DNA of 64,000 bases from positions 1-64,000 of the forward strand of contig QPMI01000221.1 in NCBI GenBank assembly GCA_004431415.1. The letters are read 5' to 3'. Positions 5,697 to 48,243 of this stretch are shown here, one piece after another. The translations under genes were made by a program, and so were the position numbers. The notes below the pieces were generated by a model, which was not told the DNA's origin, did not search any database, and worked only from the letters and a program-made list of their open reading frames with translations. This DNA comes from Cyanophora paradoxa CCMP329. Lineage: Eukaryota > Plantae > Glaucophyta. Each line of letters opens with the position of its first letter. Position 1 is the first letter of the stretch.

Positions 5697-5799
5697 GGTA
5701 CCGGCCGCGGGAGACCTGCGCGCGCTGACATGAGCTTCGAGGTCGCGCGCGCGAACATGGACCGATCGATATCGGAAGCCGCTGAGCTTGATCAATGAT

Positions 5800-9989: not shown

Positions 9990-10586
9990 CTAGCCCGTAG
10001 GGAGGCAGTCATCCGCCGACTGGAAGCGGAGGCCGGCATCGCGGGCCGCCTCTGCGAGTTTCTGCATGCACGCCACCTTGCGCGCGAGGCCTCCCGAGGC
10101 CTTTTTAACCCTCATCTCGCACACGCGGGCCGATGCCGCGTCCTTGAACCCGTAGGCGACCGCGACGAGGCGCCACGGGCCCCTGCCGCGGCAGAACGAG
10201 TTCTTGATCGAGCCCGTAAAGTGCTCGTGAAGGCGGCGCTTCAGGTTGGTGGTGGAGCCCGTGTAGCTGACCTTGCCATTCTCCAATATGTACACGGCGG
10301 GGCTCGACCCCACGAGAACGACGAGGGGGTCCTCCGCGAGCTCGAGGGCAGAGGGGGAGCTCGCGCTCGCCGGGGCTGCGGCCGTCGGCGATGCTGCAGA
10401 GCGCGTGGCGCGCACGTGATCGAGCACGGCGCACGCAGCTCGCTCCGTCTGCGTCGGCGTCGACGTCGACGTCGCGATCGGCGGCAGCGGCAAGCTTAAG
10501 CCGCCGGAAGCGGGCGTATGCACGGTCTCGAGTTCGAGGCTTGCTTCGAGATCCGCCCCATCGCGATCGCCTGCAGCAGGATCCAT
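9990..10586 (-). CDS. Stand-alone GIY-YIG nuclease (SLX1/UPF0213-like), intronless
   Basis: AVYILENGKVSYTGSTTNLKRRLHEH...SFCRGRGPWRLVAVAYGFKDAASARVCEMRVK: VY..YTG, conserved Arg and His, and the metal-binding Glu. Confidence 0.9.
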   Translation of the reverse strand: MDPAAGDRDGADLEASLELETVHTPASGGLSLPLPPIATSTSTPTQTERAACAVLDHVRATRSAASPTAAAPASASSPSALELAEDPLVVLVGSSPAVYILENGKVSYTGSTTNLKRRLHEHFTGSIKNSFCRGRGPWRLVAVAYGFKDAASARVCEMRVKKASGGLARKVACMQKLAEAARDAGLRFQSADDCLPTG

Positions 10587-11783
10587 AGATACCTATATAT
10601 CTATTACTATATATATTGCCAAGAACCAGAGACGATGAGCCCTGCCCCGGCAATTTGTTTTTATTTATGTGTCCGGCCGGCCAGGCCCTCAATGGCCCAG
10701 CCCGCCAGCTGACAGTGACCCCGGCGATATGATGGCGATATCGATGTCGATCCTTAGGGCCTGTGCCGGTGTGATCGCGGTCTTTTAATCGAGAGCACGC
10801 CGCGCCAAGCTTAAGCCTGAATCGGTACTCGGGACGGGAATTTCGATAAGGTTCTTCGCCATACATGTCCAACCGAAATTCTAGCGGAGCACAGCGAACG
10901 ATTGGCGCGAAACTGAGCACGTCTGAAGTGCAGTTTAGAGCAATCTAGAGCAGGGAGATTTTGGGTTTCGCGCCAATGTCTCGCCGTGCAGAAGTTGGCC
11001 TCGGGGGTCGCTGCGCCCCGGCCCCCTCTTCAGCCCTCGACAGCGCAAGGCAGCTCAAGGCCCGCCCAGGCCCCCCCGCTCCCCCCAACTGCCCTTCCCG
11101 GGACTCGAACGCTGGGGCAATAAGACGCCGGCCGGGCGCGCTGCTAGCTCGGCTAGCTCGCCGCGAAACTGGCCTTTTCCTCGTCGCTTTTGTATGGCCA
11201 TACATCTAGGAAAATTTCGTACCGCATCCGCACGAAACTGAGCCTTATTCTAGCATCAAGATGCATACTAGCTAGTATTAAACGCTTCAGTTTCTCGCCA
11301 ATCGCTTTCCATTATTTTATCCAGCCAAATCGACCAGACAATCCTAGAGTTGACACTCGCCGTAGATATAATGCTTTCGAACTGGTATTCGCTGGATTCC
11401 GGGTTTTATAATCATGTGCGCACGTACTACGGTATACGTAGCTACTGACTCTGAGGTCCTTTTCATTTTGAATCGATCTAATTATAAAGCAGTCACGTTG
11501 ACGTAAGCGTCGACATATGCAGTTGAATCCGAATTCTATTAGTATTAATTTCATGCGACTCGCCACGGCGTCCGACGGTCGGTGATTTGGTTTTTGGTGA
11601 ATTCAATGCATATGATTACCGGCCACAGTCTCTAGACACCAGCACTGCGGGGGCTGCCCAGGGGCACAGTGAAGTTTTAGATGCGCATAAGTGTCCGAAT
11701 TCGAATATATAAATACAACACTGTAACACGGGCGTACGCGTGTGAGTCTATTAATTACAAACAATGCCCGTGTATGCGACCAG

Positions 11784-13447
11784 CTAGCTGAAGGGGGCAT
11801 ACGGAAGGAGAAAAATGCTGTATCCAGAAGCGCTCGGTACAATGACGGCGCGCTCGTCCGCCGTGAAGCGCACGCCGCGGTGCACGGCGATCGAACCCTC
11901 AGCGCGAAAGGGAACACGAAAGGGCCCCGCCCGCAGCCCTCGAAAAGGCCAGACGACCTCTACCGATGCCATACTACGGCCGTGGGTCGACAGGGGGCGT
12001 TTGTAGAAAGCAAGAACAGAGCGGCTTGGGGTTGTGCACATCACGATAGAGACGGGAATCCCGAGGACTTCGAACAGGTCGTCCCTGACAAGCGTCTCGC
12101 TTACGCTTTGCGTGAGCTCCCATGCATTCGTCTTCGGATTGAAGGGGCGCCACGAAGAGGGACCTGTTGGAAGGCCCACGATGTAAAACGAATTTTGAGA
12201 GACATCGAGATAACCCTCGCGCCCCGGGGCAGACCACGTGGAAGGCAAGTCCGCGAAGATCGGTGTGAGCGTGGCGACGCGATGCCGCACTGGCTCCCAC
12301 ACGAACGAGCTGGTTTGACACACGGCGAGCACGCGGCTCTCCCCCGCAGGGGCCAAAAAGCGAATCGAGATGACATCGCGAAGGGTTGACCGGGGATCCC
12401 GAACCTCGGATGTGCCCGCGCACAGCGTGTAGCGAGCTGCCCACCACCAGTAGACGTGCTTGCGACTGGCGGAATGCACGATCCACGGGCTCTCATCTTT
12501 TGGACCCTGAATGCGGGGCCAGGGCCCGGGAAAGAAAAGTTGCCCGCGACCGCGCGTCACGTTTTCGCGGTCGGGCTCGTAAATTGCAACCGAGTTCGTG
12601 TACTGTAACCAAAGGCGCCCTGAGGGGTCGCGCGCCATATCGACCAGCCAGGCGTGCGAGTTACGAAAAACGGGGGTCCATCGACCGGACTCCAAGTCCA
12701 CGACGTGAATTGTTTCGCTCCCTCCGACGGCCAGGCCGACGTGGTTTTCATCGATGGCAACAATTCGCCGCACTCGCTTTTGAGGTATTATCGTGAGTGC
12801 GCTCGACGTCAGGTCCTTTGTCTCGCTAGGAGGTCCGCCCCGGACGGAATTACCCTGTATCGACCCTCTCGATACAAGGCGACGCGCCCATCCGGCAGCC
12901 CAAACACGATGCCAGGAGCTCCAAATGCAGGAGCCCAGCTCGGAGCCCCTTTAATGGAGGGAGCCGCGTCGCGCTCATGATCGCCGACGCCTTGCAGAAG
13001 AGAAACGATGCGGTACTCATCGGTCTCGTAGCTGTGCACAACGGCCCACTCGCCGGAGGCCGCGAGGATAAGCGAGCCGCTCTCTCCTGGGGACAAGATG
13101 GGCAAGGCGAGAATGGCGGGTCGAGGCGGTCGGAAAAGCAGCCCGAGATCGGCAGGCATAGGGGCGGCCCGCCCCGCCTTGTGAAACACGGGATAGAGGC
13201 ATCGCGTCATCTCTCCCGCGTCGACCGAACCGAATCGCGTCCGGGCGGATAGCCTCTTGGAGCAGATGGAAGCGAGCACGGCTGGGTCGGCCCGCAATAG
13301 TACGGCGATTGCAGAATCGGGTGCGAAAGGAAGGTCAGCGTCCACGTCTTCCGCAAAACCAGACACAGTTTTGCACGAGAGAGTGGATTGCGCATATGCG
13401 TGCCATACGCAAGCCCATGAGGAGCTGCAGGAGGCCGGATAAGGCAT
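11784..13447 (-). CDS. Intronless beta-propeller-like protein (about 550 aa; one frameshift near 12840; start uncertain)
   Basis: ORFs 12809..13804 and 11784..12773 join if one G is added to the GGGG run (…IPSGGGPPSETKDLTSSALTIIPQKRVRRIVAIDENH…). Beta-strand blade-like segments include IVFGLPDGRVALY, TIHVVDLESGRW and LVDMARDPSGRLWL. Confidence 0.5.
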
Positions 13448-13730
13448 ATTAGAGCTTGGAAGTGAGTGGGCATTGCAATTGCAATGGATATCCTGCGCAT
13501 GCAAACGCGAGTCGCGATCGGATTCAAGCACCGTGTCCGTATACGTATTTGCACCCCTCATGATCAGAACGCGTCTCGAACTCCGGATCGGGGTCTTTGA
13601 GCTTGTGCTTGCAATTGCACGTGGGTCCCTTTTGGGATGTGCCATATATGCATCCCACCCATGGCAAGGCCCCCGATTTGAAACGCGGGATCGACCGGAG
13701 CTCGCGATCGGAACGAATTCGGTGGACGTC

Positions 13731-15385
13731 GACGTAAATGGGAAACAGCGCACTACGGTACCCTCAGGTTCAGTTGCAGGCGGTCTTCTGCTTGGCTTAT
13801 ACAATTAATCATGAATAAATCTAAGGAGGGAAAGGGGGAGAGGTGGGGGTGGGGGCGCTTCAAAATTTCGGGGACACCAGAAATCTAGATCTAGAGCGGC
13901 CGTGGTCTTATATAATTAAGGAGGACTGGACGTCAATGGGAAACGGCGTATCCCCAGGTGCCGAGCTGAGCTTGGCCAGATGGAGAGACGAGGTGGGGGG
14001 TCCTTGAGCGAAGCCTGGACGTAAATGGGAAACGCAGTACCCCCCAAGGGGGCGAGCTGAGCTTGGCCAGAGGAAGAGACGGAGGAGGGGGCCGGGGGCC
14101 TTGAGCGAAGCCTGGACGTAAATGGGAAACGCAGTACCCCCCAGGGGGGCGAGCTGAGCTTGGCCAGAGGAAGAGACGGAGGAAGGGGGACCTTGAGCGA
14201 AGCCTGGACGTAAATGGGAAACGCAGTACCCCCCAGGGGGGGGGGGGCGAGCTGAGCTTGGCCGGAGGGAGAGAGGAGAGAGAGGGGAGGGGGCCTTGAG
14301 CGAAGCCTGGACGTAAATGGGAAACGCAGTACCCCCGAGGGGGCAAGCTGAGCTTGGCCGGAGGGAGAGACGGAGACAGGGGAGGGGCGGCCTTGAGCGA
14401 AGCTACTTTCTACTTTCTAGCTGAGCTTGGCCGGAGGGAGAGAGGAGAGAGAGGGAAGGGGGCCTTGAGCGAAGCCTGGACGTAAATGGGAAACGCAGTA
14501 CCCCCTTCCCCTCCCATCCACCCTCCATGAGCCAATCCGAGCACATGATCATGATCATCAACGATTATCGCAATAATAATCAATCAAGCAGTAGGAATAT
14601 TATGAGATCGCAGCGTCAGTTTATATCTGCGGTCGATTCTAGATCGGATCCCGTCCCCCGCGCGAGCCTTCTCTCTCTAGATTCAGATGTAGATCTCAAT
14701 CTAAATGGCATCGATGCCATGATAATCATATATATGCAGCTGCAGGCGGCAAGGAGAGCTGGGGGTACAGCGTTTCCCATTATCGTCCAGGGCTCCCCTA
14801 TGGCCGGGGTGTCCCGCAGAGAGGAGAGCGGGGGGTACAGCGTTTCCCATTATCGTCCAGGGCTCCCCTATGGCCGGGGTGTCCCGCAGAGAGGAGGGCC
14901 CCGGGGTACAGCGTTTCCCATTATCGTCCAGGGCTCCCCTATGGCCGGGGTGTCCCGCAGAGAGGAGAGCGGGGGGGACAGCATTTCCCATTTACGTCCA
15001 GGGCTCCCCTATGGCCGGGGTGTCCCGCAGAGAGGAGAGCGGGGGGTACAGCGTTTCCCATTATCGTCCAGGGCTCCCCTATGGCCGGGGTGTCCCGCAG
15101 AGAGGAGAGCGGGGGGGTACAGCGTTTCCCATTATCGTCCAGGGCTCCCCTTTGGCCGGGGCCCCCGCAGAAAGGAGAGCTGGGGGTACAGCGTTTCCCA
15201 TTTACGTCCAGGGCTCCCCTATGACCGGTGTGCCCCGCAGAGAGGAGATCTGCGGGGGACAGCGTTTCCCATTATCGTCCAGGGCCCTCGTACACATGCA
15301 CATTGCCGGCCCGGGGTCCCCGCAGATCTAGAGAGGAGATCTTTGGGGTCAGGGGTTACAGCGTTTCCCATTTACGTCCAGGGCT
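13731..15385. repeat. Foldback-like element copy 1: left arm of tandem units with GGACGTAAATGGGAAACGC, spacer, right arm of ~70-bp units with the inverted motif
   Basis: About 7 direct motif copies in 13731-14500 and about 9 inverted copies (GCGTTTCCCATT(TA/AT)CGTCC) in 14770-15380. Confidence 0.8.
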
Positions 15386-15780
15386 CCTCTTTCGAAGCGT
15401 GCGCGTGATCATGAGACTCTGAGATCGCGGCCATCTTTGGGACTCGGAGCTGTAGACCTCGCCAATCGCGAGTCGCGTTGTGCGCGGGCCGCGGCCGGCC
15501 GCGCGCGGGTCCAAAGTCAACTGTGCTGCATTCAATCATAATTTGCATTTACGTATATATACATTTGCGGCCGTGCGGGCCTTGCCAGCACTCTAGATCT
15601 AGATCTAGATATAGATTTATCATCGTATGGCGTATGCGGGCCGGGGGCGCGGCGAGCCGGAGCGCGTGCAGCCAGCAGGGCTTGCGGCGCGCGTCGGCGA
15701 GCTCCGGCCGTGGGCCCGGGGCCGGGGCCCGGGGCTGGCCATGGGCGCGAGGCATGTGCGAGGCGTGAGAGCGGGTGCAG

Positions 15781-16765
15781 CTGCAGGCGGTCTTCTGCTT
15801 GGCTTGATCATGAATAAATCTAGAGGTGGGGGGCGGGGGGAGGGGGAGGGGGGGCGGGGGGGGGGGGGGGGGGGGCAGAGGTAGGGGCGGGGGGGCGCTT
15901 TCAAATTTTCGGGAGCACCAGAAATCTAGATCTAGAGCGGCCTTGAGGGAGGCCTGGACGTAAATGGGAAATAGCGTACCCTCAGATGCAGCTGAAGGCG
16001 GGAAGAAGTTTCGATCTGCTTGGCTTGAATAAATCCTAGAGGGGGGGAGAGGGCAGAGGTAGGGGCGGGGGGGCGCTTTCAAATTTTCGGGAGCTCCAGA
16101 AATCAAGATCTAGAGCGGCCGCGGCCTTGAGGGAGGCCTGGACGTAAATGGGAAACGCTGTAACCCCTGGCACACGAACTGAGTCTAGCCAGGGAGAAGC
16201 GGGGGGGGGGGAAGGGGGGGAGAGGGGGGCTTTCTTACAATCACCCATATGCACGGCAGCCCGGCGGCCCCCCCTCTCCCCCCCCCCTCGCCCTCACCCT
16301 CCATGAGCCAATCCGAGCACACTGACATGATCATGATCATCAACGATTATCGCAATAGTAATGATCAAGCACTAGGAATATTAAAATGAGATCTAAGCGT
16401 CGACGTCGGTCTAGATCTAGATCTAGATCTAAATCTGCGGCTGTCAAGACGACACTAGCTATATAGATCAGATCCCGTCCCCCGCACGCGCCTTCTAGAT
16501 CTCACTCTAGATTTAGATGTCGCTCTCAATCTAAATGGCATCGATGCCATGATCATCATATGCAGCTGCAGGCTGCAAGGAGAGCTGGCCGTGGGATACA
16601 GCGTTTCCCATTTACGTCCAGGGCTCCCCTATGGCCGGGGTGTCCCGCAGAGAGGAGAGCGGGGTATAGCGTTTCCCATTATCGTCCAGGGCTCCCCTAT
16701 GGCCGGGGTCCCTCGCAGAGAGGATGGCTGTGGGGGTACAGCGTTTTCCATTTACGTCCAAGGCT
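15781..16765. repeat. Foldback-like element copy 2 (shorter arms, same spacer)
   Basis: Start matches 13776 onward (GCAGGCGGTCTTCTGCTTGGCTT). Spacer 16296-16580 matches 14519-14760. Two direct and three inverted motif copies. Confidence 0.75.
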
Positions 16766-18811
16766 CCCCTTTCCCCTCGCTCTCTTCAGCCAACTGCAGG
16801 CCGACCGCATACCTCCCTCTCGCTCTCTCGACAGCTGGATGGGGGGTCGAGGAGGAGGCCCGAAAAGTCGAAAGATCTAGATCTAGCTAGGCGCCGTTCA
16901 ACTCTCGCAGGCGACAATCCCAACACGATCATGTGGTGCGATTACGATCGAGCTGGCAGGGCGCCCACATCGATCGAGCTAGCCTACTAGGCGCCTCCCA
17001 GCCACCGGCCCGGGGGCGGGACAGAAAGAATCCGAGGGGGGCAGATCTAGAGGCGCGCGCACTGCACGGCCGCGAGAGAGAGGAGCTCCGCCACCTCCCC
17101 GCCCGCCCGGGTGCAGAGCTGGACCGCCGTGCGTGTCCCGGTCCGCTGGTGTGCGTCTCCTTTGCCTGCTCCTGCAGCTGAGCGAGGGAGCGACGAGGGG
17201 TCCCCGAGACCGGGGCGCCCGGGCCCGGGCGCGATGGGGGCAGGGCATCGAGAGCTCGAGCGAGCGGTCTCGATCGCGAGAGGGCGCACCGGTACGGCCC
17301 TGCCGAAGAGGCCGCCGTCGGCCCGGACGACGACCGAGGGCTCCGAGCGGGACCGGCCGCGGCGCGCGCGCCTCCGGTCCCGAAACCGTCCCGAGCCGGT
17401 CCAGCTCGGGGCGACGTCGAGCAGGCTGGCATTGGCCACATGCATGGCTGGCGAGACGCGCGCAGTGCGCCTAGCTGTAGCCGTAGGCCAATGGCAAGCT
17501 CAAGGCTAGGCCATGCGCGCGCCCGACGCGCCGCGGCCGCTCGGGCTCCTCGTGCTCGCGATCGAGCCCCCGCCACTCGATTCTTCTCCGTCTGCAGCTG
17601 CAGCTGGATCTGCGCGCCGCGGCGCGCGTTACGTGGCGGCGGGGCCGACGGGGCGCATCGGCGCATGCGCACTAGCACTGCGGCAGCTGCGCATGCAGGC
17701 CCGGGGCAGGAGACGCCCACGTGCGCGTGGGACGAGCTCTGAGATCGACAGCGCGCCCATGGCGATCTCGATTCCACGCGTTCAAGGCCGCACGGCCAGC
17801 GCATCGCCGATCTAGATCTAGATCAAGACGGCTCGAACTCGATGCTGCATGACGGCTTCACTCGCTGCGATGCCGATGCCGATGCCGATGCAATCGAGCC
17901 GATGCATGTGCCGCTCTTCCCCCGCAAGCTCGCTCGACCGCACTGGGGGCGGCCGCCCCGCGCTGTTCTCGCCGGCACGGGGCAAAGGATCCAGACTTGG
18001 AGCGTGCAGTCCGCCAGTGATCGGGCCCTAGATCTCCTTTCCGCACGACTTAAGCGCGGGGCGCGCGGGGCCACGGGGCGGCCTCGAGCGCGAGGTGCGA
18101 CTGTACCCCACTGGCCCGCCCCGCTCTCTTGGATCGGCGGCTCCGACCCACCTCTGCGGTGCGGTACGCTCCTCTCGGATTTGGGCCCCCGTTCCGACCG
18201 GATTCGCAGACCCTGCGCCTTTCCGCAACATTCGATCCGCGAGCTACGAGCACGCGCGATCCACCGTGGCACGCGCGCCATTTGAGAGCCGCGCTGCGAG
18301 CGCGGACGATGGCCTGCCGTCCACCGCAGCCGCCCCCGTGCGCCCCTGCCATCCGATCTGCGACCCGCGGCCATCTCGCACCTTTCTCCCTCGATGGCGT
18401 CGCCCGATCGGCCCTCCACGGTGCACGCCGGCTCTTAGAATGGGTCTGGCCGCCTCTGGAAGACGCAGCGACGCCGGGGCTCGCAGGTCGCCGAGCTGGA
18501 GACGGGAATCTCTTCTTCTTGCATCCTCGGTTCGTACGGCGCTAAGCCTCGCCGACCGCGCTCCCCGGGTCGCGCTCGCGTGCTCACCGACCCCTCAGCG
18601 GTGGCGGGGCGGCGTGGGACGCTTCGTTCTCTTCGGGGCGGGCTGGGCGGGGGGCGGCACCCGCGGGATCGGGCGGACGAGGCCGAGCGGGGGCCGATCC
18701 GTCGGCTCCGGCAGCTGCGGCGCGACCGCCGGCTCCATCCCTTTCTCTTCCCTCTTTCCGGCGCGCCCCCGTGTCCGGCGCGCCGTCCGGCCCGGTTCCT
18801 TTTGGCCGCGG

Positions 18812-21800
18812 TCACGGCCCGCGGTTCTTCCGCGGCCTCCCGCGCGCCCGCGGGGCCCCCGAGCCGCCCCGTACGGCGGCCCCCGCACGCGGCGTCGGAG
18901 GAGCGGGGGGCGAGGACGGCCCGCCCCCCAGGCCCAGCAGGTCGGAGATGCGGGCCGGGGGCGTGCGGATGTCGACGGCGCCATTGCGGGCATCGTACCT
19001 CACCGGCGCGAGGGTGCGCACGCCCGTCCACTCGCGCGCGCTGCCCTCTGAGCTCGGCGTCCAGAGCGCCCCGAACCGGCGGAGGACGGCCCAGCGCGAC
19101 TCGTACTCGCCGCTCGGGAGGCGCACCATCTGCACCAGCCGGGCGAACACGGTCCGGGGCAGCGGGTCCGCCGCGTGCGTCGCCACCGCCGCCGCCACCT
19201 GCCCCGGGGGGTACGGGCTCGCGCTGACCCACCTCAGGTGCCACACGGGCCGCGACGGCGGGTCCGCGGGCTGCGCGGCGGGGAGAGCGGGGCGCTCCGG
19301 GCCCGGAGACGCCGCGGGGGAGGCGGCCCGACGCCCCTTGGTCTCCGCCCCGCGTCCCGTCCCCGACGCCCCGCCCCCGCGGCGGGCCCTCGTGCGGCTC
19401 CCGCTGCCGTTGGGGCAGGTCTGCGCGTGCCTTCGGGCCCCCGCCGCCGTCTGAAAGGTCTGGCGTCGGTGAGACGGTGCGCGTGCGCGCGCGCGCGCTC
19501 GCTCCCCCTCGCTCGCTCGCGGAAGGGTGGGGCGGGGCGGGCTCACCCGTCGGCAGGGCTCGCAGTACCGGCCCTCTCCGATTGCGAGGTCGAGCTCCAT
19601 CTGGTCTCCCGGGTCGAGGCGCCGCCGCTGCCACGGGAACCGCTTCGGCTTTCGCGGCCGCTCCTCTTCCTCCTCTTCCTCTTCCTCCTCTTCCTCTTCC
19701 TCTTCCTCCTCTTGCTCCTCCTCCTCCTCCTCCTCTTCCTCTTCCTCCTCTTCTTTGCCGCCCTCTGTCTCGCTCCGGCTCCCGCTCCGGCTCCCGCTCC
19801 CGCTCCCGCTTCCGCTCCGGCTCTCCGGCTCCCCTCCCTTTCCGGGCGGGGTACCGCCTCCCCGCGGGGGACGGGCGGCGGTGCGCGGCGGGACCGACGT
19901 CGGCGTCGCGCCCGTCGACGTCTCGGGAGCGCGGGGCGAGCTCGGAGGCGGCAGAGGGGCGACCGCAAAGGGTACGGCGGTGCGGACGGGTACGGCGGTG
20001 GGGACGGGTACGGCGGCGGGCGCCTCGCCGGGGCCCGGCCCGCCCGGGTCCGGATCGGCGGGGAGGAGGGCCGGCGGCGAGTCGCGGTCGGCGGCCCCCG
20101 TGGACCGCTCCCGCTCGGCGGCGCGGCGGCGCTCGTGCTCCTCGGCCAGGCGCTGGAGGTACGCGACGGCGGCCGTCGCCGTGCGCTGCCGCGCGCTGGC
20201 GTCGTAGTGCGTCGTCGCCGTCTGCGGCGTGTGCGCCAGGAGGCGCGCCACGCCCTCGGTCACCGCCGCCGCCGCGTCCCCCTCGATCAGGTTCACCGCC
20301 GCCTGGTCCCGCACGTGCGTCGTGATGACCGCCCGCATCGTCTTGGCCGTCACAGGCACCCCGGTGTAGCGCACCATCACCTGCGCGCGCGCGCGCGCGG
20401 GCGCGCGGGGCGCCGGCGTCAGCGTCGGCGTCGGGATTCGAGCCCACGCAGTAGGTTCGCTCCCCCTCTTCCCCCCCTCCCCCCCTCCCCCCTCCTCCCC
20501 CCCCCTCCTTCTCCCCCCCCCCCCCCCCCCCCCCCCCTCTTCTCCCGAGCGCACCTTTCTGACAAAGGCCGCCCAGCCGCTCTCGGAGAGGCAGGTGCCG
20601 AGGCTCGAGGCAAAGAGCCAGCCCTGGTCGGGCCCGCCCGGCGGCAGGAGGAGGGCGCGGAACCGCTCGATGTAGACGTCGAGCGGCCCCTGGAGGCAGT
20701 CGGCGATCGGCACGATCATCGCGCCGTGGGACCTGCGCGGCCCGGCCTCGGCGCGGGCGGGAGGGGGAGGGGCAGGGGGGTACGAGGGCGCGGGGGCGCG
20801 CACTTGGCCGTCTTCGAGACGAGCTCGCCGGTCTCCCCGTGGCGCATCTCGAGGAGGCTCAGGTGCCACCGCCCGCCGTCGCGGCGCAGCGTGTGACCGA
20901 TGCGCAGGCGCCGCACGACGCCGACGCGGGCCGGCGTCACCGAGATGAACCCGATGAGCACGGCCTCGCGCAGCAGCCGGGCCTTGTCCAGCTCGAGCGG
21001 CGCCCGCTCGTACGCCGCGAGCGCCTCGACCCGCGCGGACAGCACCGCGTCGAACGAGACCCAGTTCGGTCCGCGCGGCCGCCACCCCCGCTGCTGCTTC
21101 TTCTCCTTTTCGAGCTGCGTCTTCAGGTTCCGGAGGGGGCGCGCGTGGGGACCCTCGGAGGACCCTCCGCCCGGCCCGCCCGACGTACCCCCTCCGCCGC
21201 CGCCGCCGCCGCCGCCGCCAGAGGTGCGGGAGCAGACAAAGGTGTAGGCCTGCATGATGCTCTGCGTGTACCCCGCGAGCGTGCCGGGCGCGAGACGGCG
21301 CTCCTCGCGCAGGTACTGCAGGAAGCGGACGTAGATCTCGACAAAGTCGGCCGCGCCAGCAGGTCCATGGTGAGGGGCCCGACGCGCTCGCGCTCCTTGA
21401 CGTACCCCAGCAGGCGGCCGATCGTCCCCACGTCGTTGACGAGCACCGTGCTGCGCTCCGCCGCGCCCCCTGGCGGTCGGGTTGAGGCCGAGGTGCGCCA
21501 CGCCTGAAACGCCGCCAGCTGGTTCTTCAGCTCCCGTGACATCTCCGCCTCGCGCAGGGCGTACGGCGCCAGGCGCTCCGGCTCCGGCTCGCCCCCCCCG
21601 TCGGCCGCCTCTTCCTCCTCCTCCTCCCCCTCCCCCTCCTCCTTGCCCTCTCCTCCCTCGGGGGCTTCGAGGGGCCCTGCGTCCTCGCCCTCTTCGGCCT
21701 CGGCGGACGATCCCGAGGAGCGGGAAGAGGACGAGGAGAGCGAGGGCGGGGCGGGGGCGAGGGCAAGGGCCCGGCGGCGCGGCGGCGGGGCGGAGGAGGA

Positions 21801-23549
21801 GGAGGAGGGGGAGGGCCGGGCCGGCGGAGGGCCCCCTACCCCCGCCGACGGGCGGCTCGGGGGGTACCGAGGGGGCGGCGGGGGAGGACGACGCGCTCGG
21901 CGTCGGGCAGCGAGTCCTCGTCAAAGAGGACGACCTCCTTGTCCACCATCCCGCTCTCCAGGAGCGTCCGGTACGCCTCGCGCTTCTCCGCGATGAAGCG
22001 CCCGTTCTCCTCCGAGATCGCCGCCGACACCGCCTCGCCCTTCGCACGTAGGCCAGGCTCCCCGCGGAGATCTCGTCGCCCAGGGAACCCCGTCATCACC
22101 TCCGTCGTGAGCGCCTCGGCGAACCAGAGCGTCCACGGCCCGCACTGGTACCCGTCCCGACCTGCAGGCGCCCGCGCGTCTCCGTGACGAAGCGGTAGCG
22201 GGGAAAGGCGGCCTTGCAGGCGCGCTCGAGCCTGGGGTCGGGCGGGCCGCCGAGCGAGTCCCAGAAGCGCGTCTGCTTCGACGCCCCGTCCACCGCGAGG
22301 AGGGTCCAGTGGCCCCCGCTCGATCCCCCTGGGTGCGCTCCCCGCCGCGCCTCAGGTTGCCCACGCTGACGGGGCAGAGGACGCAGGTCCCGCGCTCGGC
22401 GGCGCCCAGGGCCCTGCGCGCCCGCCGCGCCTCGTCGGCGCGCGCGTACCGGAGCAGCAGCGACGTCACGATCTCGACGTGCATGGGGTAGAGGGCCTTG
22501 ATCCGTCCCCCGGCGCCGGCGCGGAGCAGCAGCAGCGTGAGGACGTTGGCGATCTCGGCGTCGCGGAGCCAGCTCTTGCGGCCGAAGATCGAGATGCGGC
22601 GGGCCAGCGGGAGGGGCCGGGAGGGCCCGCAGCGGCCACGGCGGCCGGGTCCGCCCCTCGAGCACGAGGCGGGCCCTCTGGAACTCGGCGGCCAGCCCCT
22701 CTCTCCGGTCCGGCAGCGCCCCGAGGAAGCGCTCCGCCCCAGGGCGCTGACAAAGGCCCACCTGCGCGCAGATCCGTGCGTCGCGACGTCGGCCCCGAGG
22801 CCGCCGTAGTGGACGAGGGTGCGGGTGAGGAGGGCGAGCCGCTCGCGCCCCACCGTCCGCGTGCTCGCCTCGAAGCGGTGCGGCCCGCCCACCGCGAGGT
22901 CCGGGTGCCGCCTCATGATCTCCATCCGGACGCAGTTCGTGGAGCGCGAGTCCCCGTAGGCCGCCTGGGCGAGGCTCGCCAGCGGGATCCACCACTCGAG
23001 CTCCGGCACCTGCGTACCCCCCCCCCCGGCCCCCACCGTTGCCGGCGGCGATGGGAAGGGGGGTACAGGGGTACGCACCTCGATCCGCCGCGCGCGCACG
23101 GCCAGGAACCGATCCCCCGCGGCGCGCAGGACCTGCATCTCGAGGCGCTCGAGACGGGCCTGCCTCCGGCGCTCCAGCGCGGCGTAGAGCTCGGCCGCCC
23201 CGCGGTGCATGCGCCCGTCCTGCGAGCGCTCCCACGTGTTGCTCACGATCGGCTCGACGTAGCGCAGGGGCAGGACCCGCGGCGGCCGCTCCTGCGCGTC
23301 GTGCACGTTGCGCGCGATGGCGCCCAGCGTCTCCAGGAGGAGGATGGCGTTTTCGTCGGGCAGCGGGCGCGTCGGGACCCGGTGCGCCTCGGTGAGCGCC
23401 TCGTCGCCGCTCGCGATGCCCAGCAGACGCCTGAGCTCGGCCGTGCAGACGCAGGGGCCGGCGTCCGTCCGCAGGACCACGAGGCGGGCCGGCCCGTACG
23501 GGCCCTCGAACTCGGCCAGCTCGTACGTGTCCGTGACCGCGGAGAACAT
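18812..23549 (-). CDS. Multidomain tyrosine recombinase with N-terminal Ulp1/C48-type cysteine protease and C-terminal C2HC zinc finger (Crypton-like transposase candidate); spliced, several homopolymer frameshifts
   Basis: Protease: SWLRDAEI...GHWTLLAVD (His 22309-11)...RFWDSLG...LQVG(D)GYQCGPW (Cys 22142-44). Recombinase: FLQYLREERRLAPGTLAGY, TPARVGVVRRL, SKTAK, AKTMR, LLAHTPQTATTHY (Tyr 20204-06). GT-AG introns at 20733-20803, 20381-20554 and 19460-19546; the last splits YCEPCRR|TFQTAAGARRHAQTC. Confidence 0.85.
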
Positions 23550-24264
23550 TCTCTGCTCCCCGCGGCCGCCCCTCTCCGAGGTCGGGCGCGCGGGGGCTTT
23601 TAGTCGCGGCGCCCCGGCCCCTCTCGGGCCTTTGTCGGCCCCTTAGTTGCAGTACCCTGAGGCCTTTGCCGGCCCGCTTCATTGCAGTACCCCTGCCTGC
23701 CTCGCGACCTCGCATTCATTGCAGTACCCCTGCCCGCCTCGCTTCCCCCACCTCTTTTCCCGCCCCTCGGGCCGCTTCGAGGCCTCGCTCCGCGCGCCTT
23801 GCGCGGCGCGAGCGCCGGCGCCGAGCGCGCTATCAGCGTAGAACGGCGTGCAGAGCACGCACGGCGCCTTTCCGCGCCGTTTGCGCGCGTCTGGAGCGCC
23901 CCTGGGGGGAGGGGGGCCCCCCCGGGGTCGCGATCGAGGGCCGAAAGAGGGGCCGCATATACCGCACTAAAATTAGCATCAATTAGAGGGGGTCCCCTGC
24001 ATCCCTTCGACGGCCTTTGTGCGGATCCGAAAATTCATTTGACCCCTTTTTCGGGGGGGGTGGGACTGGTATGGCATGCGCGGGCGCGGCGAAGACGCCT
24101 GCGGGGCGGGCGTGGCGCCGCGGGGCTGAGCACGGCGTGCGCGCGGCAGTGCGCATGCGCAGCGGACGGAATTCGCGCGCTGCATGCATGGCCGGGCGCG
24201 CGGAAGTTCCTTTTTTTTCCTATTCTTCCCCCCTGCGCTTCTCCCCCCTGTTCATTCCCCCCCT

Positions 24265-24288
24265 AAGTTAGCCACCGGTGGCTAACTT
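24265..24288. other. Perfect 24-bp palindrome AAGTTAGCCACCGGTGGCTAACTT upstream of the recombinase gene
   Basis: Sequence equals its own reverse complement. Confidence 0.9.
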
Positions 24289-24386: not shown

Positions 24387-26000
24387 TCAGGCTATCTGCA
24401 GTCCTACAAAAGCCTTGCACCGCTGCAGTAGCCCTTTTGCCTGCTCTTCGTTCGCGAAGATGTCAGGACGCCCCGCGCGGGGCGCGCGGAACCACTCTGT
24501 GGACGTGACCACAAATGGTGCGCATGCTGTCGGATCGCGCAGGTGGTGGCCACTGCACACCACCCGACCCCAGCGCGCGCGGGGAGAACAGGACCTCCAG
24601 GACCCGGTCGACCCAACACTTCGCTTTGAATGTAGACCCGGCGGTCGTGCGCAGCCCGTTGTTACTTTTGCAAGCGTCTCGACTCGAGCGCCACCTAACA
24701 GCATATTGAGAGCAGAATCGCAAGATAAGTTGCTGTAAGAAACGCACCGAGCTCAAGAATTGCAATTGCTTCAAAGCATTGAGCTCGTCCAGGGTCCGAT
24801 CCCGGCAGTCAGGGGCGGGAGCTCGACGCTGGCGGCCGGCTCGTCGTCGTCGAAGAGGGCCGCCTGTGTAGGGCGGCCCAGCCCCTGGCGCCCTGTGAAC
24901 GAAGAAGCAAAGGAGAGAGCCGCTCAGGACTCGGAAAGTAAAGAAGCTCAGAGGAAAGACGCTCGCCTTGTCGGAGTCCCGCCCCTCCCCGCACCCGGAG
25001 TCGGGCTTGACGTTGTAGTTCTCGAGGAGGGGCGGACGGCGCCGGGGTACATGAGGACCGCCTGCCGCAGGAGGGCGGCGGCGAGGGCCGCGGCAGAGGG
25101 CGGGGCGGCGCCGGCGAGGCGGGTCCAGCGTGTGCGAGAAGAGGCGCCGGAGGACCTGCCGCGCTTCAGTCTTAGAGGAGATTCGGAGGGCGCAGGGCAC
25201 CAGCTCGTCGACGGGCGCGGCGCCGCCGTCCCGCGCCACGCGCATGAGCGCGTACGCTGCGAGCCCGGCTCGGCGCCAGGAAAAAGGGGGGAGAGGCTAA
25301 GTGGGGGTACCGAGGAGTTGAGGGCGATGGGAGGAAGAGGGGCGGCTCCCGCCTCGAGAGGGCGGCTCCCGCACGAACGAGGCGGAGCGCCCGGGAGCGC
25401 CGGCGCCGCCACCAGCTCCAGAAGGAACTTGTACTCCCTGAAGAAAAATGAGGTGGGGGGGGGGAAGTTGGGGGGGGGGGGAAGGTTATGGGTACCTGGC
25501 GCGGAGGGCGAAGTAGTCGATGCACTGGAGCACCCCCATCAGGTCACTGTCGGGTCCAGCGCAAGCAGCAGCTTGGCCGTCTCTGGAGGTACGACGTTCG
25601 GTTCGAATCCGAGTAGGGGGAAGCGGTCGAGGGGTACCGAGGGAGGTGCGGGAGCAGCCGCCGCGAATGAGCATCTGCAGGCGCCGGAAGACCAGGCCCT
25701 GGGGGTGGCGGGTGAGTCCGGAGGAGGGTACAGGTTATCCTCGGGGTACAACGGGTTCTCTGCGCACTTGTTCTCCATGACTGCGAAGTCGAGGCGGCAG
25801 GCGCCGCTCGCCGGCTTGAACTGCGGGTGCCTGCCGGGACGGAGCTCAAAACCAAGTGAACGAACTGCAGCGCAACGCATCCTCCGCCCCGCCGCGCCCG
25901 TGCCCGCGCCCCGCCCCGCACCAGGCTGCCTCGAGGCAGTAGAGGGCGCGGTCGAGGAGCTCGGTCGCCGCGTCCAGCTCGCCGCTGTACTTGTAGATCT
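24387..26000 (-). CDS. TCF25: TCF25/Rqc1 (ribosome quality control, DUF654) homolog, C-terminal portion; 5' exons not found
   Basis: Exons IYKYSGELDAATELLDRALYCLEAAW|HPQFKPASGACRLDFAVMENK|LVFRRLQMLIRGGCSRTSL|TAKLLLALDP.SDLMGVLQCIDYFALRAR|...LLRQAVLMYPG match the TCF25 core as recalled. Confidence 0.8.
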
Positions 26001-26057
26001 GAGGCCGGCCCGCCGGCTTCAGGCCCCGGGCCAGGCTTCGTGTGCTCGGGGGTTCGT

Positions 26058-27350
26058 GTGCTCGGGGAGGGCGGGCCCGGGGCCCGGGGCAGGGCCGGGG
26101 GAGGGCGGGCCAGGGGAGGGGCGGGCCCGGGGCCCGGGCGGGCCGGGGGAGGGGCGCGCCCGGGCCCGGGCGGGGCCGGGGGGAGAGGCGGGCTGGGGAG
26201 AGGGCGGGGCCGGGGGAGGGCGGGGCCGGGGGAGGCGGAAGGCGGGGGCGGGGCCCTCCGAAGAGGGGCTGGGAGAGGGAAGGAGGTCCACGTCCTCTCT
26301 TCCCCCCGAAGAGGGCACTCCGGGGGTAGGGAGGTCCGCCTCCTCTCTCCGGGGTCAGCATGCTGCGGGTGCTCGGGGAGGGCGGGCCCGGGCCCGGGCA
26401 GGGCCGGGGGAGGGCGGGGCCAGGGGAGGGGCGGGCCCGGGCCCGGGGCGGGGCCGGGGGAGGGCGCGCCCGGGGCCCGGGCGGGGCCGGGGGAGGGCGG
26501 GGCCGGGGGGAGAGGCGGGGCTGGGAGAGGGGCGGGGCCGGGGGAGGGCGGGGCCGGGGGAGGCGGAAGGCGGGGCGGGCCCTCCGAAGAGGGGCTGGGA
26601 GAGGGAAGGAGGTCCACGTCCTCTCTTCCCCCCGAAGAGGGCACTCCGGGGGTAGGAGGTCCGCCTCCTCTCTCCGGGGTCAGCATGCTGCGGGTGCTCG
26701 GGGAGGGCGGGCCCGGGGCCCGGGCAGGGCCGGGGGAGGGCGGGGCCAGGGGAGGGGCGGGCCCGGGGCCCGGGGCGGGCCGGGGGAGGGCGCGCCCGGG
26801 CCCGGGCGGGGCCGGGGGAGGGCGGGGCCGGGGGGAGAGGCGGGGCTGGGGAGAGGGCGGGCCGGGGGGAGGGCGGGCCGGGGGAGGCGGAAGGGCGGGG
26901 CGGGGCCTCCGAAGAGGGCTGGGAGAGGGGAAGGAGGTCCACGTCCTCTCTTCCCCCCGAAGAGGGCACTCCGGGGGTAGGGAGGTCCGCCTCCTCTCTC
27001 CGGGGGTCAGCATGCTGCGGGTGCTCGGGGAGGGCGGGCCCGGGGCCCGGGCAGGGCCGGGGAGGGGCGGGCCAGGGGAGGGCGGGCCCGGGCCCGGGGC
27101 GGGGCCGGGGGGAGGGGCGCGCCCGGGCCCGGGCGGGGCCGGGGGAGGGGCGGGGCCGGGGGAGAGGCGGGGCTGGGAGAGGGGCGGGCCGGGGGAGGGC
27201 GGGGCCGGGGGAGGCGGAAGGGCGGGGGCGGGCCCTCCGAAGAGGGCTGGGAGAGGGGAAGGAGGTCCACGTCCTCTCTTCCCCCCCGAAGAGGGCACTC
27301 CGGGGGGTAGGGAGGTCCGCCTCCTCTCTCCGGGGGTCAGCATGCTGCGG
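26058..27350. repeat. G-rich tandem repeat, 4 units of about 325-330 bp
   Basis: CAGCATGCTGCGG landmarks at 26356, 26681, 27008 and 27338. Confidence 0.9.
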
Positions 27351-28440
27351 AGACGGGCATAAGACACCGAAAACCAGCGATCGCTTGGCCAATGAGAAGG
27401 CTGTGGACGTCAAGCCCGCGGCGACCGTTAGAACTGAGAACACAGAAGCGATCGCCGGCCCAGCAGCTCTTTGTTAGAGATCGGATCCGCTGGGTATGGC
27501 GCCGAACACAAAGCGATCGCCGAGCAATGAGAAGGCTCATAATTAAGCGCGCAACGCCGCGCATGAATCGAATTCGCGTCTTCATTCGAATATTTTCATT
27601 TGCATTCGTCTTCAAGGCCAACCGCCGGCGGTCCGCCGCTACCGGCGCGCGGCTATAGCTACCGCCGCGGCGCCGCCTACCGGTACCGCTCTCCGAGGCT
27701 CCTGCGACACTCATGCTGCGAGCCTGCGCATGCGCGACTCGGCGAGTCTCCTTCTAAATCTTGCCGCACGGGCCGCGGCACGGTGCATGCGCAATTGCAA
27801 GCTTAAGTTCGTTGCTTCAAGGCTTCAAATCGAGTCTAGATCTTGCGCACTGGCATATGCATGCGCATCAGTGCGATCCAGTGGCATCACTGGCATGGCC
27901 GCCGGGCGCACCGTCATGTGCACGCCGCTGCAAGGCGTCGCGCAACCGTCGCCAACCGATCGCGATTCGCGACTCAGGGCCGAGCTCGAGGAAGTCTGCG
28001 AGCTTAAGACTGCGTCTTGTGATTTCGCTTGAACTGTAAAACGTGCCGGCGCCGGCGATCGATATTCAATGATTATCAATTTAAGCCTCAGAATCGAAAT
28101 AGCAGCGACAAGCTTGACTTTGAAGGGATAGCCAATGCTGATCCGATGAAGCAATTGCAAGGAGATAAAAAAAACGAAAAACGAAATGGAGCCAAAGTTT
28201 TCTAATTACAATCGAACCTGTTCTTTCGAATCAAATGATTTATGATGATTTGCCAATATACCAAATACGCGGGGATTGTTGGAAGTTTCAAGGATGATAA
28301 TGTACCGCGAGAGGGCACGAGCGGATTAGAGGAGCCGCCTGAACATGCAGAAGGGCGGACTGGCTGATCTGGACGGCGCAGTCTCGAGGCCGAGAAGCGG
28401 GCAGGGGGAATGGGGGATCAAGGCCAGCGCGGCCGCGGGC

Positions 28441-31400
28441 TCATGCGTCGAAATCCGTGCGCGCCATCGGCGGCGGAGGCGGCCAGCTGCTGTACCCATC
28501 CGGCGGGGAGAAGCGGGGGGACGGGGGCGAGGGGTAGCCGGGGCCCGGTGCGGGGGCGGGGGCCGGCAGGGCGGGCGGGGAGACGGGGGGCGAGGCGGAG
28601 GGGTCCCACTGAGGGGCCGGGGCGGCGAGGCCGAGGGAGCTGGGGTGCCGCAGGAGGACGACGGGCCCCGAGTACCCCGCCCCGAAGTCCGGGCGGCCCT
28701 GGGGCGGCGGCGGCGGCGGCGGCGGCGGCTCGGCCTGGGGCGGGGGGAGCATAGCGGAGATGGGCGGGAGCACGCCGTAGCCGCCGCCGCCCTCCCGGGG
28801 GGAGGCGAGGGGCGTCCCCGGGCCGGGTACGGGGAATAAGGCGTCCTGGGTTGTACTGGTCGGGGCGGACGGCGGAGGTCGGGGGCGGGCGGGGGGCGGG
28901 GCTGGGGGGCCCTGCGGGGCCCCCTGGCGTGGGGCGGGCCTCGAAGGCGCCGGCCTGGGCGGTGGCGAGGGCGAGGGCGCCCGGGTCCGAGGGCGGCAGG
29001 CCGCACGCGTGCTCCAGCGCCGACCGCACCCGCGCATCCAGCTCCGGCAGCCCCGGCAGCCGCGCCTGCCCCCGCGTCACCAGGCAGGGGGGGGGGGGGG
29101 GGGGGGGGGAGGCGAGGGCCCGGGGGAAGGAGGGCCCTGGACTCGAGAGAGGAGGGACTGGGGACCCGGAAGGCCCCCCCGGCTTCTATCCCCCGTGCTT
29201 CTAGCGGGGCACGCCACCCCAGTCTAAAATTTGGGCTGCAGCCGCTCCGAGCTGCCTCTGGGGCTCCCGCTCGGTTCGGGGGCGGACCTGGCCGAGCTCG
29301 CGGACGAGGAAGTAGTTGACGGAGGAGGCCGACTCCCGGTGGAACTCCGGCCACTGCTCCTGTGCCCGCCCGCCCCGCCGTGTCGGCGTCGGCCCCCCGC
29401 GGTAGGAAGGAAACGAGAGAGGGCACGCGGCCGGCGCACCGCGAGCGCGCCGCGGCCCGGCGGGGCCAGCATCGCCAGGGACCACCTGCCGCCGCGCGCC
29501 GTCGGCGGGGGTACAGGCTCCCGCCGAGCGGGGGGGTACCGCAGCAGGATGGCGGTGACGTCCCTGGCGTCGGAGCGGCAGGCGACGCGGTAGAGGCCGT
29601 CGTACCTGGAGCGCGCCCCTGCCCCGTCGGCGCGGGCCGGCGATGGGTACGCGCGCACGCGCGCCGGCGCGCGCACCGGGCGGTGACGCGGGAGGGGGAG
29701 GGGGAGGAGGGGCCGGCGCGGGGAGAGGCCCCGTAGGCCCCCGACTCGTCTGCATCGTAGTCTGCGAGAGAGAGAGGGGGGGATCTTCGGCGGGGGTACA
29801 GGCGAGGGCGGGGAGGGGAAGGGCACCGTCGCAGTCGAGGGAGAAGCGGGCGGGCGGGGCGGGGCCGCGGGCCGAGCCCGGCGAGTCGGCCGCCCAGCCG
29901 CTGGGGCCGCCCCCGCCGCCGCAGCTGCTGACCGTCGTGTTGGAGGGGCATCCGTTCCCGCTGCCGGGGGTGCGTGCTCGAGGGGTACAGGGCCGCGTAG
30001 GGCCGGGGGAGGGGCGAGCGCTACCTGCCGACCGAGTCGCGGCGACCGCCGGGGTACCCCTGCGACAGGCACCAGGGTGAGAATCGACTCGGCGGGGGTA
30101 CCCGAAAGGAGGAGGGCCAACGCTCGCCTGGAAGAAAAAGGTGTTCGATGACTGGGGGGAGGGGGGGAATTCGGAGGGGGCCAGGTGCCGCATGTGTTCC
30201 ATTGTCGCAAGCTGGAGAGGGGGAAACAGAAGGGAGATCAGGGGCGGGGGATGTCTCGGAGAGGGGTACGGCACCTTGGAGCTGCGAAAGACTCGGACGG
30301 GCTTGCCGGAGGCCAGACTGGTGTCTAGGGCCGGCCCTCCCGATCTGCGCGTACCCCCGAGATCAGGAGAGGGGGGCGGGGGGGGGAGGGGGGGGGGGGG
30401 GGGCGGGCCTGTTGTTCGAGATGTAGAGGACGACGTCGTACCCGTCCACGTTGCGGGGGTGGAGAGCATGACGGAGGCGGCGCCCTCCTGGCGGCTCCCG
30501 GACACGTGCGGCGGGAGCTGGCGCCGGGCACGCGTCAAGATCTGGACGGGGGGGGGGGGGGGGTGGAGGAGGAGTGGGCGCGGGGCGGACGCCGCGGGGA
30601 GGACCCGAAGTGGTCGTGGAAGCCGCGGGCGCGGACCTCAGCGACAGGGAGAACCTGCGGCCCCGCCCCGGCCTCGGTCCGAGGGGCCGGCAGGCCTGCG
30701 CGGCCGGGGGCGGGGCCGGGGCCGGGGCCGGGGCCGGGGCGGACCTCGTTGACGAAGCAGCCGGGGAGTGGGCCGAAGCGGGGCGAGCGCTCCGGGCGGA
30801 CCCACGCCTCCAGCTCCACGGCGCGCCCCACCTGCCCCCGCCCCCTCAGGCCCCCCCCCTCGTGGCCCCGGCTCCCCCGTGGCGCCCCGGGTACCTGGGG
30901 CGGCTTGGCCCCCTGCCCCCGCGCCTCCTCCATCGCGCGGCGGAGCGCCCACACTGCGCCCCGCGTCAGGAGGGAGGGCCGGGGTCCCGTGAGGGGCTCT
31001 GAGGCGCCACGGGCGGCGGGGCGCAGTAGACGAGCCCTTGGGTGCAGGAGCGGGCGGCCGGTGACGGGGCAGTCCAAGAGGTGAAGGAGGGGGGGCGGGG
31101 CGGGGCGGGGCGGGGCGGGGGCACCGTCGAGCTCGCGGAAGACGATGGCGACGCGGCGCTGCCCTCTCGCTCCTCGCCCCCGCCGTCGGCGACGGCACCC
31201 GCCGCTCGTGCCTGCCACCGCGCCGCGCCCCGCGTCACCGCCGGCACCGCGCCCTCCAGGCTCGGCCCGGAGGGGCCCGCGCACCGCTGCTGCGTCATGC
31301 CGGCCATGAGGACCGACGCGTTGCGCCCTGCGCGCGCGCGCGCGTTCGCCGCGTGAGGCGCCTCGAGGCGAGTGCGGGGGGCGGGGGCGGGGCGGACGGA

Positions 31401-34790: not shown

Positions 34791-34990
34791 TGTAGGACGG
34801 CTTTTTTAACTGTAGTTTTAAATTGCCGTAAATTGCCGAGAGGCCGAATTCGGCAATTTTATAATTGAGCATCGGCAATGTTGCTGGGGGTAGGGGGTTT
34901 CTTAGCCCGCCATAGAGCGAAAGTCTGATTCCGAGTGATTCGGCAATCATTGAATTTATCGCCACGGCAATTCCGGTTTTGGGCGAATTT
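34791..34990 (+). mobile_element. Partial CTGTAGG-TIR MITE copy lacking the Helentron insertion (empty-site paralog)
   Basis: Aligns by eye with the reverse complement of 39351-39522 and continues across the insertion point (GGCAATTCCGGTTTT). Confidence 0.75.
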
Positions 34991-35284
34991 ACTAAGGTAT
35001 ACCGTATATATATACGTCACGGTATAGATCATGTGCCGCAGATGATGTGCGCCAAAGTACGTTATATATACGTTACCCAAGCACGAAGTTACTTATAATA
35101 TATTAATTAAAATACCAGTACCCGGTGACCGTGGATGCGCAATTGCAAGCTTCAAAGGCTTCGAATTCATGCCATGATGATTATGAATCATGATGAAGCC
35201 TACCGTGCACGTAACACTATATTATGACGGTCAAATTTATGTCGATATAAAACCCGACCCTTCTCTACTAGGCTATGCGAAATA

Positions 35285-48130: not shown

Positions 48131-48243
48131 TTCGGAACGGAGGGGGAAGAGGCCGGGGGCGCGTTGTAAAAGAGAGCTCAAGCTCGATCAAATTCCCGGC
48201 AGTGGCGCACCAGGCGCCGAGACGCGAGTCTCACATCGGAACG

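Follow-up and report, generated by a model that had tools for sequence, protein, structure and literature searches.

Eukaryotic mobile elements in which a tyrosine recombinase is accompanied by a peptidase of the Ulp1 family are known among the Cryptons: in the accessible part of the survey by Kojima and Jurka (2011; PMC3212892), which lists Cryptons of 0.35–6 kb, C48 peptidases are reported for CryptonF-2_PS and its relatives and, encoded as a further protein, for some CryptonS, and the accessible part of PMC13465315 terms the C48 peptidase of Cryptons a second gene. In Ginger1, Mutator and Helitron elements, Ulp1 or OTU domains are fused to the transposase, and the role of Ulp1-type domains on many transposon classes is described as still hypothesised (PMC2836005, as far as its accessible text goes). 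Here, we describe a gene at positions 18812–23549 of a 64,000-nucleotide stretch of Cyanophora paradoxa CCMP329 (contig QPMI01000221.1; hereafter the window). Its predicted product joins a CE-clan protease and a tyrosine recombinase in one chain, and it probably serves as the transposase of a Crypton-like DNA transposon that is present in multiple copies in this glaucophyte-type alga. An earlier note on the same DNA had regarded Ulp1 domains as unfamiliar in Cryptons, which the C48 peptidases reported in PMC3212892 contradict.

Like the C48-bearing Cryptons, the locus combines a eukaryotic tyrosine recombinase devoid of reverse transcriptase with an Ulp1-family peptidase at low copy number; unlike in the Cryptons covered by the accessible text of PMC3212892, the peptidase lies N-terminal to the recombinase within one predicted chain instead of being a second protein, and the repeated block surrounding the gene may exceed 23 kb. 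With Ginger1, Mutator and Helitron it shares the fusion of a ubiquitin-like-protein protease to a transposase, whereas their transposases are DDE or HUH enzymes, with a C-terminal protease in Ginger1 (PMC2836005, accessible part), and ours is a tyrosine recombinase preceded by its protease. The pairing of C48 peptidase and Crypton is already known; the in-frame fusion, the recombinase lineage and the possibly very large mobile unit appear to be undescribed, and no published description of the fusion or the element was found in the literature, Repbase and most subscription journals lying outside the search.

Domain composition of the fused gene

All protease, recombinase and zinc finger motifs named in the earlier note were located where it had placed them, on the minus strand (23549–18812). 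From its N-terminus, the predicted product comprises a domain resembling Dachshund/SKI, an Ulp1-like protease of the CE clan, a tyrosine recombinase with the catalytic set R-K-K-R-H-Y, a zinc finger and, last, a small β-barrel (Table 1). When the predicted spliced sequence was aligned with the EukProt gene model P0002 in a frameshift-aware manner, identity was 77% over 986 aligned residues. All 13 translated pieces are collinear with this model and free of stop codons, and the alignment of these pieces set the positions of the catalytic codons, which are given as first bases. Each of the four predicted GT-AG introns coincides with a gap in which the P0002 model has no residues; those that the earlier note had seen in the catalytic domain are among them, while intron 1 had escaped it. 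The GC content at third codon positions is high (0.93–0.98 across five coding segments), and both catalytic sets are, as read from the sequence, intact.

The protease carries a His-Asp-Cys triad and an oxyanion glutamine, whose His-Asp-Gln-Cys order and fold it shares with SENP/Ulp1, DEN1 and bacterial CE-clan proteases. Its family profile retrieved CE-clan structures (E=1.9e-8), and the structural neighbours of a model of the paralog P0001, which is of low confidence (mean predicted local distance difference test score, pLDDT, of 43.9), are mostly CE-clan proteases, the top ones being a mixture of SUMO, NEDD8 and ubiquitin proteases. It differs from known members of the clan by an identity of 13–23% in structural alignments and by a C-terminal extension of its own, which is common to the environmental fusions described below. 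For the recombinase, a profile of 27 family sequences retrieved archaeal Xer (E=0.0012), and the SAM-like domain matched the N-terminal domains of integrases and Xer with a VIA Z of 7.2–7.5. The lysine at 20344 occupies the place of the histidine in the HxxR motif, and five catalytic columns are 94–100% conserved in the 49 near-full-length relatives among 150 with a profile match.

Of the accessory domains, the N-terminal region likely adopts a Dachshund/SKI-like, putatively DNA-binding fold, as its first ~110 residues in the P0001 model superimpose on 1l8r (VIA Z 8.5; root mean square deviation 2.8 Å over 94 residues; Foldseek E=0.04); its Atlas neighbours reached a best score of 0.79 and yielded no leads. 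The zinc finger was detected in the paralogs P0003 and P0005 as Pfam zf-C2H2_jaz (E=0.04). Models of the C-terminal β-barrel (pLDDT of 75 for the best and 36–43 for the other four) gave no clear fold match, the best VIA Z being 5.1, and a modelled likeness to SH3, Tudor or chromo domains is a weak lead. It is followed on the 3′ side by a basic motif, which we take to be AT-hook-like.

Table 1. Features of the fused gene and its surroundings (window coordinates).
Feature	Position	Strand	Remarks
Fused gene	18812–23549	−	~1,350 codons after removal of four predicted introns
N-terminal region, first ~110 residues Dachshund/SKI-like	22640–23549	−	Model of paralog P0001
Intron 1 (predicted)	23010–23078	−	69 nucleotides, GT-AG; gap in P0002 alignment
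CE-clan (C48/Ulp1-like) cysteine protease	21880–22598	−	His 22311, Asp 22260, Gln 22164, Cys 22144
Low-complexity Ser/acidic linker	21573–21870	−	Not conserved; C run with a frame break near 21855
Recombinase core-binding (SAM-like) domain	21100–21572	−	Pfam Phage_int_SAM_1 and VIA structural match
Recombinase catalytic domain	20150–21099	−	Arg 20928, Lys 20814, Lys 20344, Arg 20335, His 20233, Tyr 20206
Intron 2 (predicted)	20733–20803	−	71 nucleotides, GT-AG; no P0002 residues
Intron 3 (predicted)	20381–20554	−	174 nucleotides as assembled, GT-AG, long G run; no P0002 residues
Pro/Ser-rich and acidic low-complexity region	19660–20130	−	Translation
C2HC-type zinc finger	19405–19560	−	Split by predicted intron 4; Pfam zf-C2H2_jaz in paralogs
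Intron 4 (predicted)	19460–19546	−	GT-AG; no P0002 residues
Conserved C-terminal β-barrel	18920–19258	−	61–75% identity to five paralogs
Spliced antisense transcript(s)	18209–22707	+	Strand inferred from splice signals
Antisense exons	18209–18420, 18487–18529, 18599–19013, 19065–19174, 19238–19476	+	Seen or deduced; intron 22333–22386
Block of uniform short-read contig depth	577–24076		~7× stray contigs; level over ~577–13700 and 17000–24076
GIY-YIG nuclease gene	9990–10586	−	198 residues; Pfam E=1.3e-9; EukProt P0175
Direct and inverted arrays	13731–16758		15-bp motif in 70–97 bp units; 21 matches versus 0.62 expected
Perfect 24-bp palindrome	24265–24288		Longest in window; near right edge of block

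Reading frame, relatives and transcripts

The frameshift-aware alignment places nine frame breaks in the gene (22735, 22652, 22617, 22324, 22163, 22078, 22043, 21855 and 21349), to which an extra self-compensating pair near 21486–21460 was added by eye. In the list given by the earlier note, the break at 22700 comprises three, and those at 22078 and 22043 were overlooked. Short-read DNA contigs of two runs show three gaps and no substitution in each run over 22363–22837; because these gaps match them, the breaks at 22735, 22652 and 22617 are assembly errors. An RNA-like contig over 22386–22706 contains two gaps, and short-read contigs carry extra bases at 22329 and 21486. Altogether, five frame breaks are shown to be bases missing from the assembly, which bears out the supposition that they are largely assembly errors, and each of the 12 indels listed for 1000–13700 is likewise a base missing from the window. 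We infer the same for the breaks at 22163, 22078, 22043, 21855 and 21349 and for the second of the pair.

The gene is most closely related to 19 EukProt records, which lie on 17 contigs. Of these records, 11 are named Cyanophora paradoxa and 8 were grouped with them by their shared naming style; the element is consequently multi-copy, as had been proposed. Twelve of the 19 match the protease and the recombinase profile within one model. The single fused reading frame claimed in the earlier note is thereby found again in 14 proteins, i.e., these 12 Cyanophora models and two environmental proteins, P0029 and P0058 (JGI/IMG and ENA records), each of which contains both domains in one called protein. 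The Cyanophora records form four subfamilies of 45–85% identity that all keep the whole architecture; within them, P0003 and P0005 are 99.5% identical over 402 residues. A recombinase search of 1.84 billion representatives returned 174 matches at E≤0.001, the best 150 of which were examined. Among 136 relatives from outside Cyanophora, 11 have at least 250 residues upstream of the recombinase, and in two of these 11, P0029 and P0058, that stretch contains the protease at the corresponding place; their proteases score 50.6 and 40.1 bits against a Cyanophora-only profile, and P0154, a protease without recombinase, scores 45.3 bits. Both environmental fusions end in a chromodomain, and in a quick tree built without outside references their recombinases form a clade separate from that of Cyanophora. 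Judging from these sequences, a single origin of the Cyanophora and environmental fusions is plausible. A metagenome scan with the environmental fusion alignment gave no matches, and among 80 metagenome loci of a sister group, which are mostly shorter than 7 kb, neither the protease nor GIY-YIG was found (0/80 each).

Two further observations concern distant relatives. On one metagenome contig (L029, 12288–13400), a telomere-resolvase gene of the ResT/TelK type (Pfam E=5.7e-15) lies 1.4 kb 3′ of a related recombinase. The cluster of P0130, a transcript-derived protein of Gefionella okellyi with two chromodomains, extends the recombinase group to another eukaryotic lineage.

Several observations weigh against a fused, mobile transposase. 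The Pfam scores of both enzymes fall under the curated cut-offs (Peptidase_C48 E=0.0046 on a 58-residue piece; Phage_int_SAM_1 E=0.021), the Cyanophora fusions are gene-predictor models, and most recombinase relatives have no protease, which suggests that the lineage does not need it. The recombinase tree contains no Crypton, DIRS or viral reference, and the careful search behind it is incomplete. As RNA we used X15 and X17, runs of two studies that are not on record as RNA and were treated as such because their contigs are spliced: of the 57 and 46 contigs that they contributed, 5–6 and 4 are listed, and among those listed, none shows a sense intron of the fused gene and none bridges protease and recombinase, and the bin 21496–21776 has no RNA cover at all. 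Moreover, the linker break at 21855, on which the fusion bears, has no short-read support of its own. This break and the missing bridges would suit protease and recombinase being separate adjacent genes, as in CryptonS, with the fusion as an artefact of gene modelling, and the published C48 Cryptons, as far as the accessible parts of PMC3212892 and PMC13465315 go, have the peptidase as a second protein. We nevertheless consider such an arrangement very unlikely, as P0029 and P0058 hold both domains in one called protein, the linker frames used are stop-free, and 12 Cyanophora models concur.

What the RNA contigs do show is splicing on the opposite strand. Among those listed for X15 and X17, a plus-strand GT lies within 1–3 bases of all six internal right ends (18419–22706) and an AG within 1 base of all three left ends (background 0.09–0.21), and two unseen antisense exons of 43 and 110 nucleotides fit the contig gaps exactly. 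The method reads both strands, because the intron at 17672–17610 and two of three joints of the neighbouring gene show minus-strand splice signals. The RNA pieces listed over the fused gene are spliced antisense to it, which the earlier note had not noticed. This antisense RNA is likely non-coding; a coding gene on that strand was rejected, as codon periodicity is absent and 147 of 2000 shuffles are equally stop-free. Next to it, a minus-strand transcript with the single intron 17672–17610 runs 3′ of the recombinase gene (17289–18095) in both RNA-like runs and is either a long 3′ untranslated region or a separate RNA.

Affinities of the element and the surrounding block

In the broad sense of the term, the locus resembles a Crypton: a catalytic tyrosine recombinase is present and dispersed in multiple copies over 17 contigs. 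Reverse transcriptase and RNase H, whose absence nearby the earlier note had remarked upon, were found neither among 64 open reading frames (ORFs) in 1–13800 and 23 selected ORFs elsewhere nor in most of the 19 family records, which among the ORFs scanned sets the locus apart from DIRS, Ngaro and VIPER, where both adjoin the recombinase. The Pfam models GCR1_C, NDC10_II, DUF3504 and DUF3435 were absent from 10 window pieces (E≤1) and from 7 (E≤0.1) and 44 (E≤0.01) proteins. CryptonF recombinases are of the NDC10_II type, a link made in Pfam. Unlike CryptonF, the locus is without GCR1_C; unlike CryptonA and CryptonI, it is without DUF3504 and possesses C-terminal domains; and unlike in CryptonS, the protease is in the same chain (in 14 proteins, and by prediction at 18812–23549) and not an additional protein. 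The CryptonS terminus TATGG occurs at 24070–24074, close to the right edge of the depth block described below, and with 43 copies in the window it was discarded as evidence. Judged by its domains, the element would work like a Crypton and yet does not pass as CryptonA, CryptonF, Starship or DIRS; as the recombinase family matches no Crypton or Starship Pfam model, it may constitute an unnamed branch.

The fused gene lies in a block of level short-read contig depth (~350–420 in run X1 and 530–720 in run X8), which the earlier note had not noticed and whose depth is 6.6 times the stray-contig median in X1 (24 contigs) and 6.9 times that in X8 (23 contigs). Single-copy depth was estimated from these stray contigs, the set leaving out rows of depth 165–205, which are related-subfamily contigs, and high-copy repeats; contig depth is not equal to copy number. 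At the putative right edge one contig stops at 24076 and depth rises more than 10-fold beyond, and at the putative left edge unitigs of both runs begin near 577; unitigs inside the block reach 6.9 kb with 0–1 substitutions. Short high-copy inserts interrupt the level depth. Two of them, at 10884–11311 and 7460–7548, have depths of tens of thousands; the former resembles a miniature inverted-repeat transposable element with imperfect inverted ends (10899–10916/11287–11304), the latter repeats at 34791–34854, 35283–35323 and 39453–39524.

A GIY-YIG nuclease gene is encoded on the same strand 8.2 kb downstream of the fused gene. Its protein shares 58% identity with the C-terminal part of P0008, a recombinase model of another subfamily in which the GIY-YIG part directly follows the recombinase gene on the 3′ side; it is likely a second gene of the element. 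Its linkage in other subfamilies rests on P0008, since a GIY-YIG search of 97 candidates found the window's own protein and no other. The array of 15-bp motifs is a candidate array of binding sites, and the 24-bp palindrome a candidate recombination site. Three apparent minus-strand genes (11787–13440, 4386–5162 and 1000–3450) are propeller-like and ankyrin-like by eye; the ORFs at 11787–12950 and 4386–5162 have no Pfam, PHROGs or PDB matches, and ORFs in 1000–13700 have no RNA cover.

These features raise the question of how far the element extends. If the whole block were one element of at least 23.5 kb, the fused gene would be its 'captain', with a recombinase unrelated to that of Starships, and the GIY-YIG gene, the arrays and the three genes would be passengers. 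The uniform depth, the near-identical long unitigs, the joining of GIY-YIG to a recombinase model in another subfamily and the position of the fused gene, which comes first when the block is read from its right edge, starts 530 bp in and is oriented inwards, would all fit: in the accessible text of PMC9156397 and PMC10104507, Starships likewise begin at one edge with an inward-facing recombinase gene, behind which unrelated genes follow. Unlike Starships, however, the locus has neither DUF3435 nor Starship cargo families and is not from a fungus. Depth, moreover, gives no copy number and does not cover 13701–16999, a left end and a terminal repeat were not found, the GIY-YIG cluster has one member in the EukProt collection and does not show seven copies, the passenger ORFs are without database matches, and a segmental duplication would produce equal depth. 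On balance, we regard so large an element as unlikely.

The same negatives tell against mobility in general. Cryptons have terminal direct repeats of 4–6 bp and lack long terminal ones; between the candidate ends of this element, terminal repeats amount to GC-rich 7–8 bp matches at chance level; the flank of contigs matching from 24077 onwards is absent from the window, so that no empty site was found; and neither an end of the element nor a target site nor an empty allele was found. The fused gene might be a small or inactive element carried along passively in a recent amplification of segmental or subtelomeric type; alternatively, it might be a silenced relic. The region is repeat-dense, its copies are near-identical over many kb, and the RNA pieces listed are spliced antisense only, as a relic would allow; intact active sites, high third-position GC, the lack of stop codons and the retention of the entire architecture by four diverged subfamilies would be surprising in one, and we consider this distinctly unlikely. 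The preferred reading of an intact, mobile, multi-copy element probably applies.

A viral origin, with the block as an endogenous Polinton-like virus or its remnant and the recombinase as its integrase, seems highly improbable. The Atlas clusters nearest to the catalytic domain in feature space include some whose commonest phylum is Preplasmiviricota (score 0.94–0.96), with recombinases of Polinton-like viruses and virophages; as far as the accessible text of PMC12220804 goes, Polinton-like viruses, which are found in Cyanophora, measure 14–40 kb and encode GIY-YIG nucleases as well as recombinases, so that a GIY-YIG neighbour is a shared trait. Unlike these viruses, the block has no recognised viral core genes (no ATPase, helicase or polymerase families among 64 ORFs in 1–13800, some of them broken by assembly errors, with capsid profiles lying outside the scan), and low gene density and predicted spliceosomal introns set it further apart. 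IMG/VR contained no viral-contig relatives in all three recombinase-family scans, nor did phage records. Neighbours of related metagenome recombinases (39 ORFs from 13 of 80 loci) are transposases and host-like genes devoid of a viral core set.

Proposed mechanism and the remainder of the window

Reasoning from Cryptons and Starships, we propose that the recombinase would bind the ends of the element, which would be excised as a circle through a short homologous core and re-inserted at a matching target; for active Cryptons, namely CryptonF-1_cRei, insertion via recombination at short motifs is reported in the accessible part of bioRxiv 2022.05.23.493040. The tethered protease might strip SUMO (or NEDD8 or ubiquitin) from the covalent recombinase–DNA site and the nearby chromatin, so that the host would neither treat the intermediate as a DNA–protein crosslink nor silence the locus. 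Provided that the gene is indeed such a transposase, we put the chance that the protease protects the intermediate in this way at a little short of even; counter-silencing is an equal and compatible reading. In yeast, SUMO gathers locally at trapped Flp recombinase and is lowered by delocalised Ulp1, and this delocalisation makes removal of trapped Flp slower early and faster late (bioRxiv 2020.06.08.140079, accessible part); as these effects are mixed, the direction of the benefit is ambiguous, a further point against our interpretation. More weakly, junction intermediates could be resolved or repaired with the aid of the GIY-YIG nuclease, and the element could be restrained by the spliced antisense RNA. 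Self-processing by the protease, which the earlier note had considered, was dropped, as the protease–recombinase linker is unconserved and its alignment has no shared Gly-Gly column.

The fullest version of this scheme, in which the recombinases form an unnamed clade that is widespread in aquatic protists and the glaucophyte element is a giant (>23 kb), cargo-carrying and recently amplified member, with antisense restraint and a captain whose deSUMOylase protects the covalent intermediate, we consider unlikely to hold as a whole. Should the fusion be true, a recombinase that forms a covalent intermediate and a CE-clan protease would be combined in one chain, and the role of the latter could be tested by one Cys-to-Ala change. 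Cyanophora is a culturable alga. Should the 23-kb block move as one unit, fungi would not be the only hosts of large recombinase elements with cargo.

Elsewhere in the window, an Rfam scan gave no matches at the gathering score. On the minus strand, 24800–33900 is occupied by a large gene with many introns, which encodes a RING-like finger close to its start (Pfam E=0.017) and contains a 326-bp tandem array at 26088–27350; as its segment 24823–25400 shows splicing in X15 as well as X17 and reaches a contig depth of ~2,000 in X1, it may represent another mobile element of higher abundance. Long repeats of one family, both direct and inverted and with internal units of 149 bp, are present at 35400–42300 and 59400–64000. 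A perfect 186-bp tandem duplicate at 48015–48394 includes tRNA-like sequence by eye and could be a short interspersed nuclear element. Finally, 49400–59000 holds what by eye are intron-rich host genes for a membrane protein, a HAD-like hydrolase and a nucleotidyltransferase-like protein.

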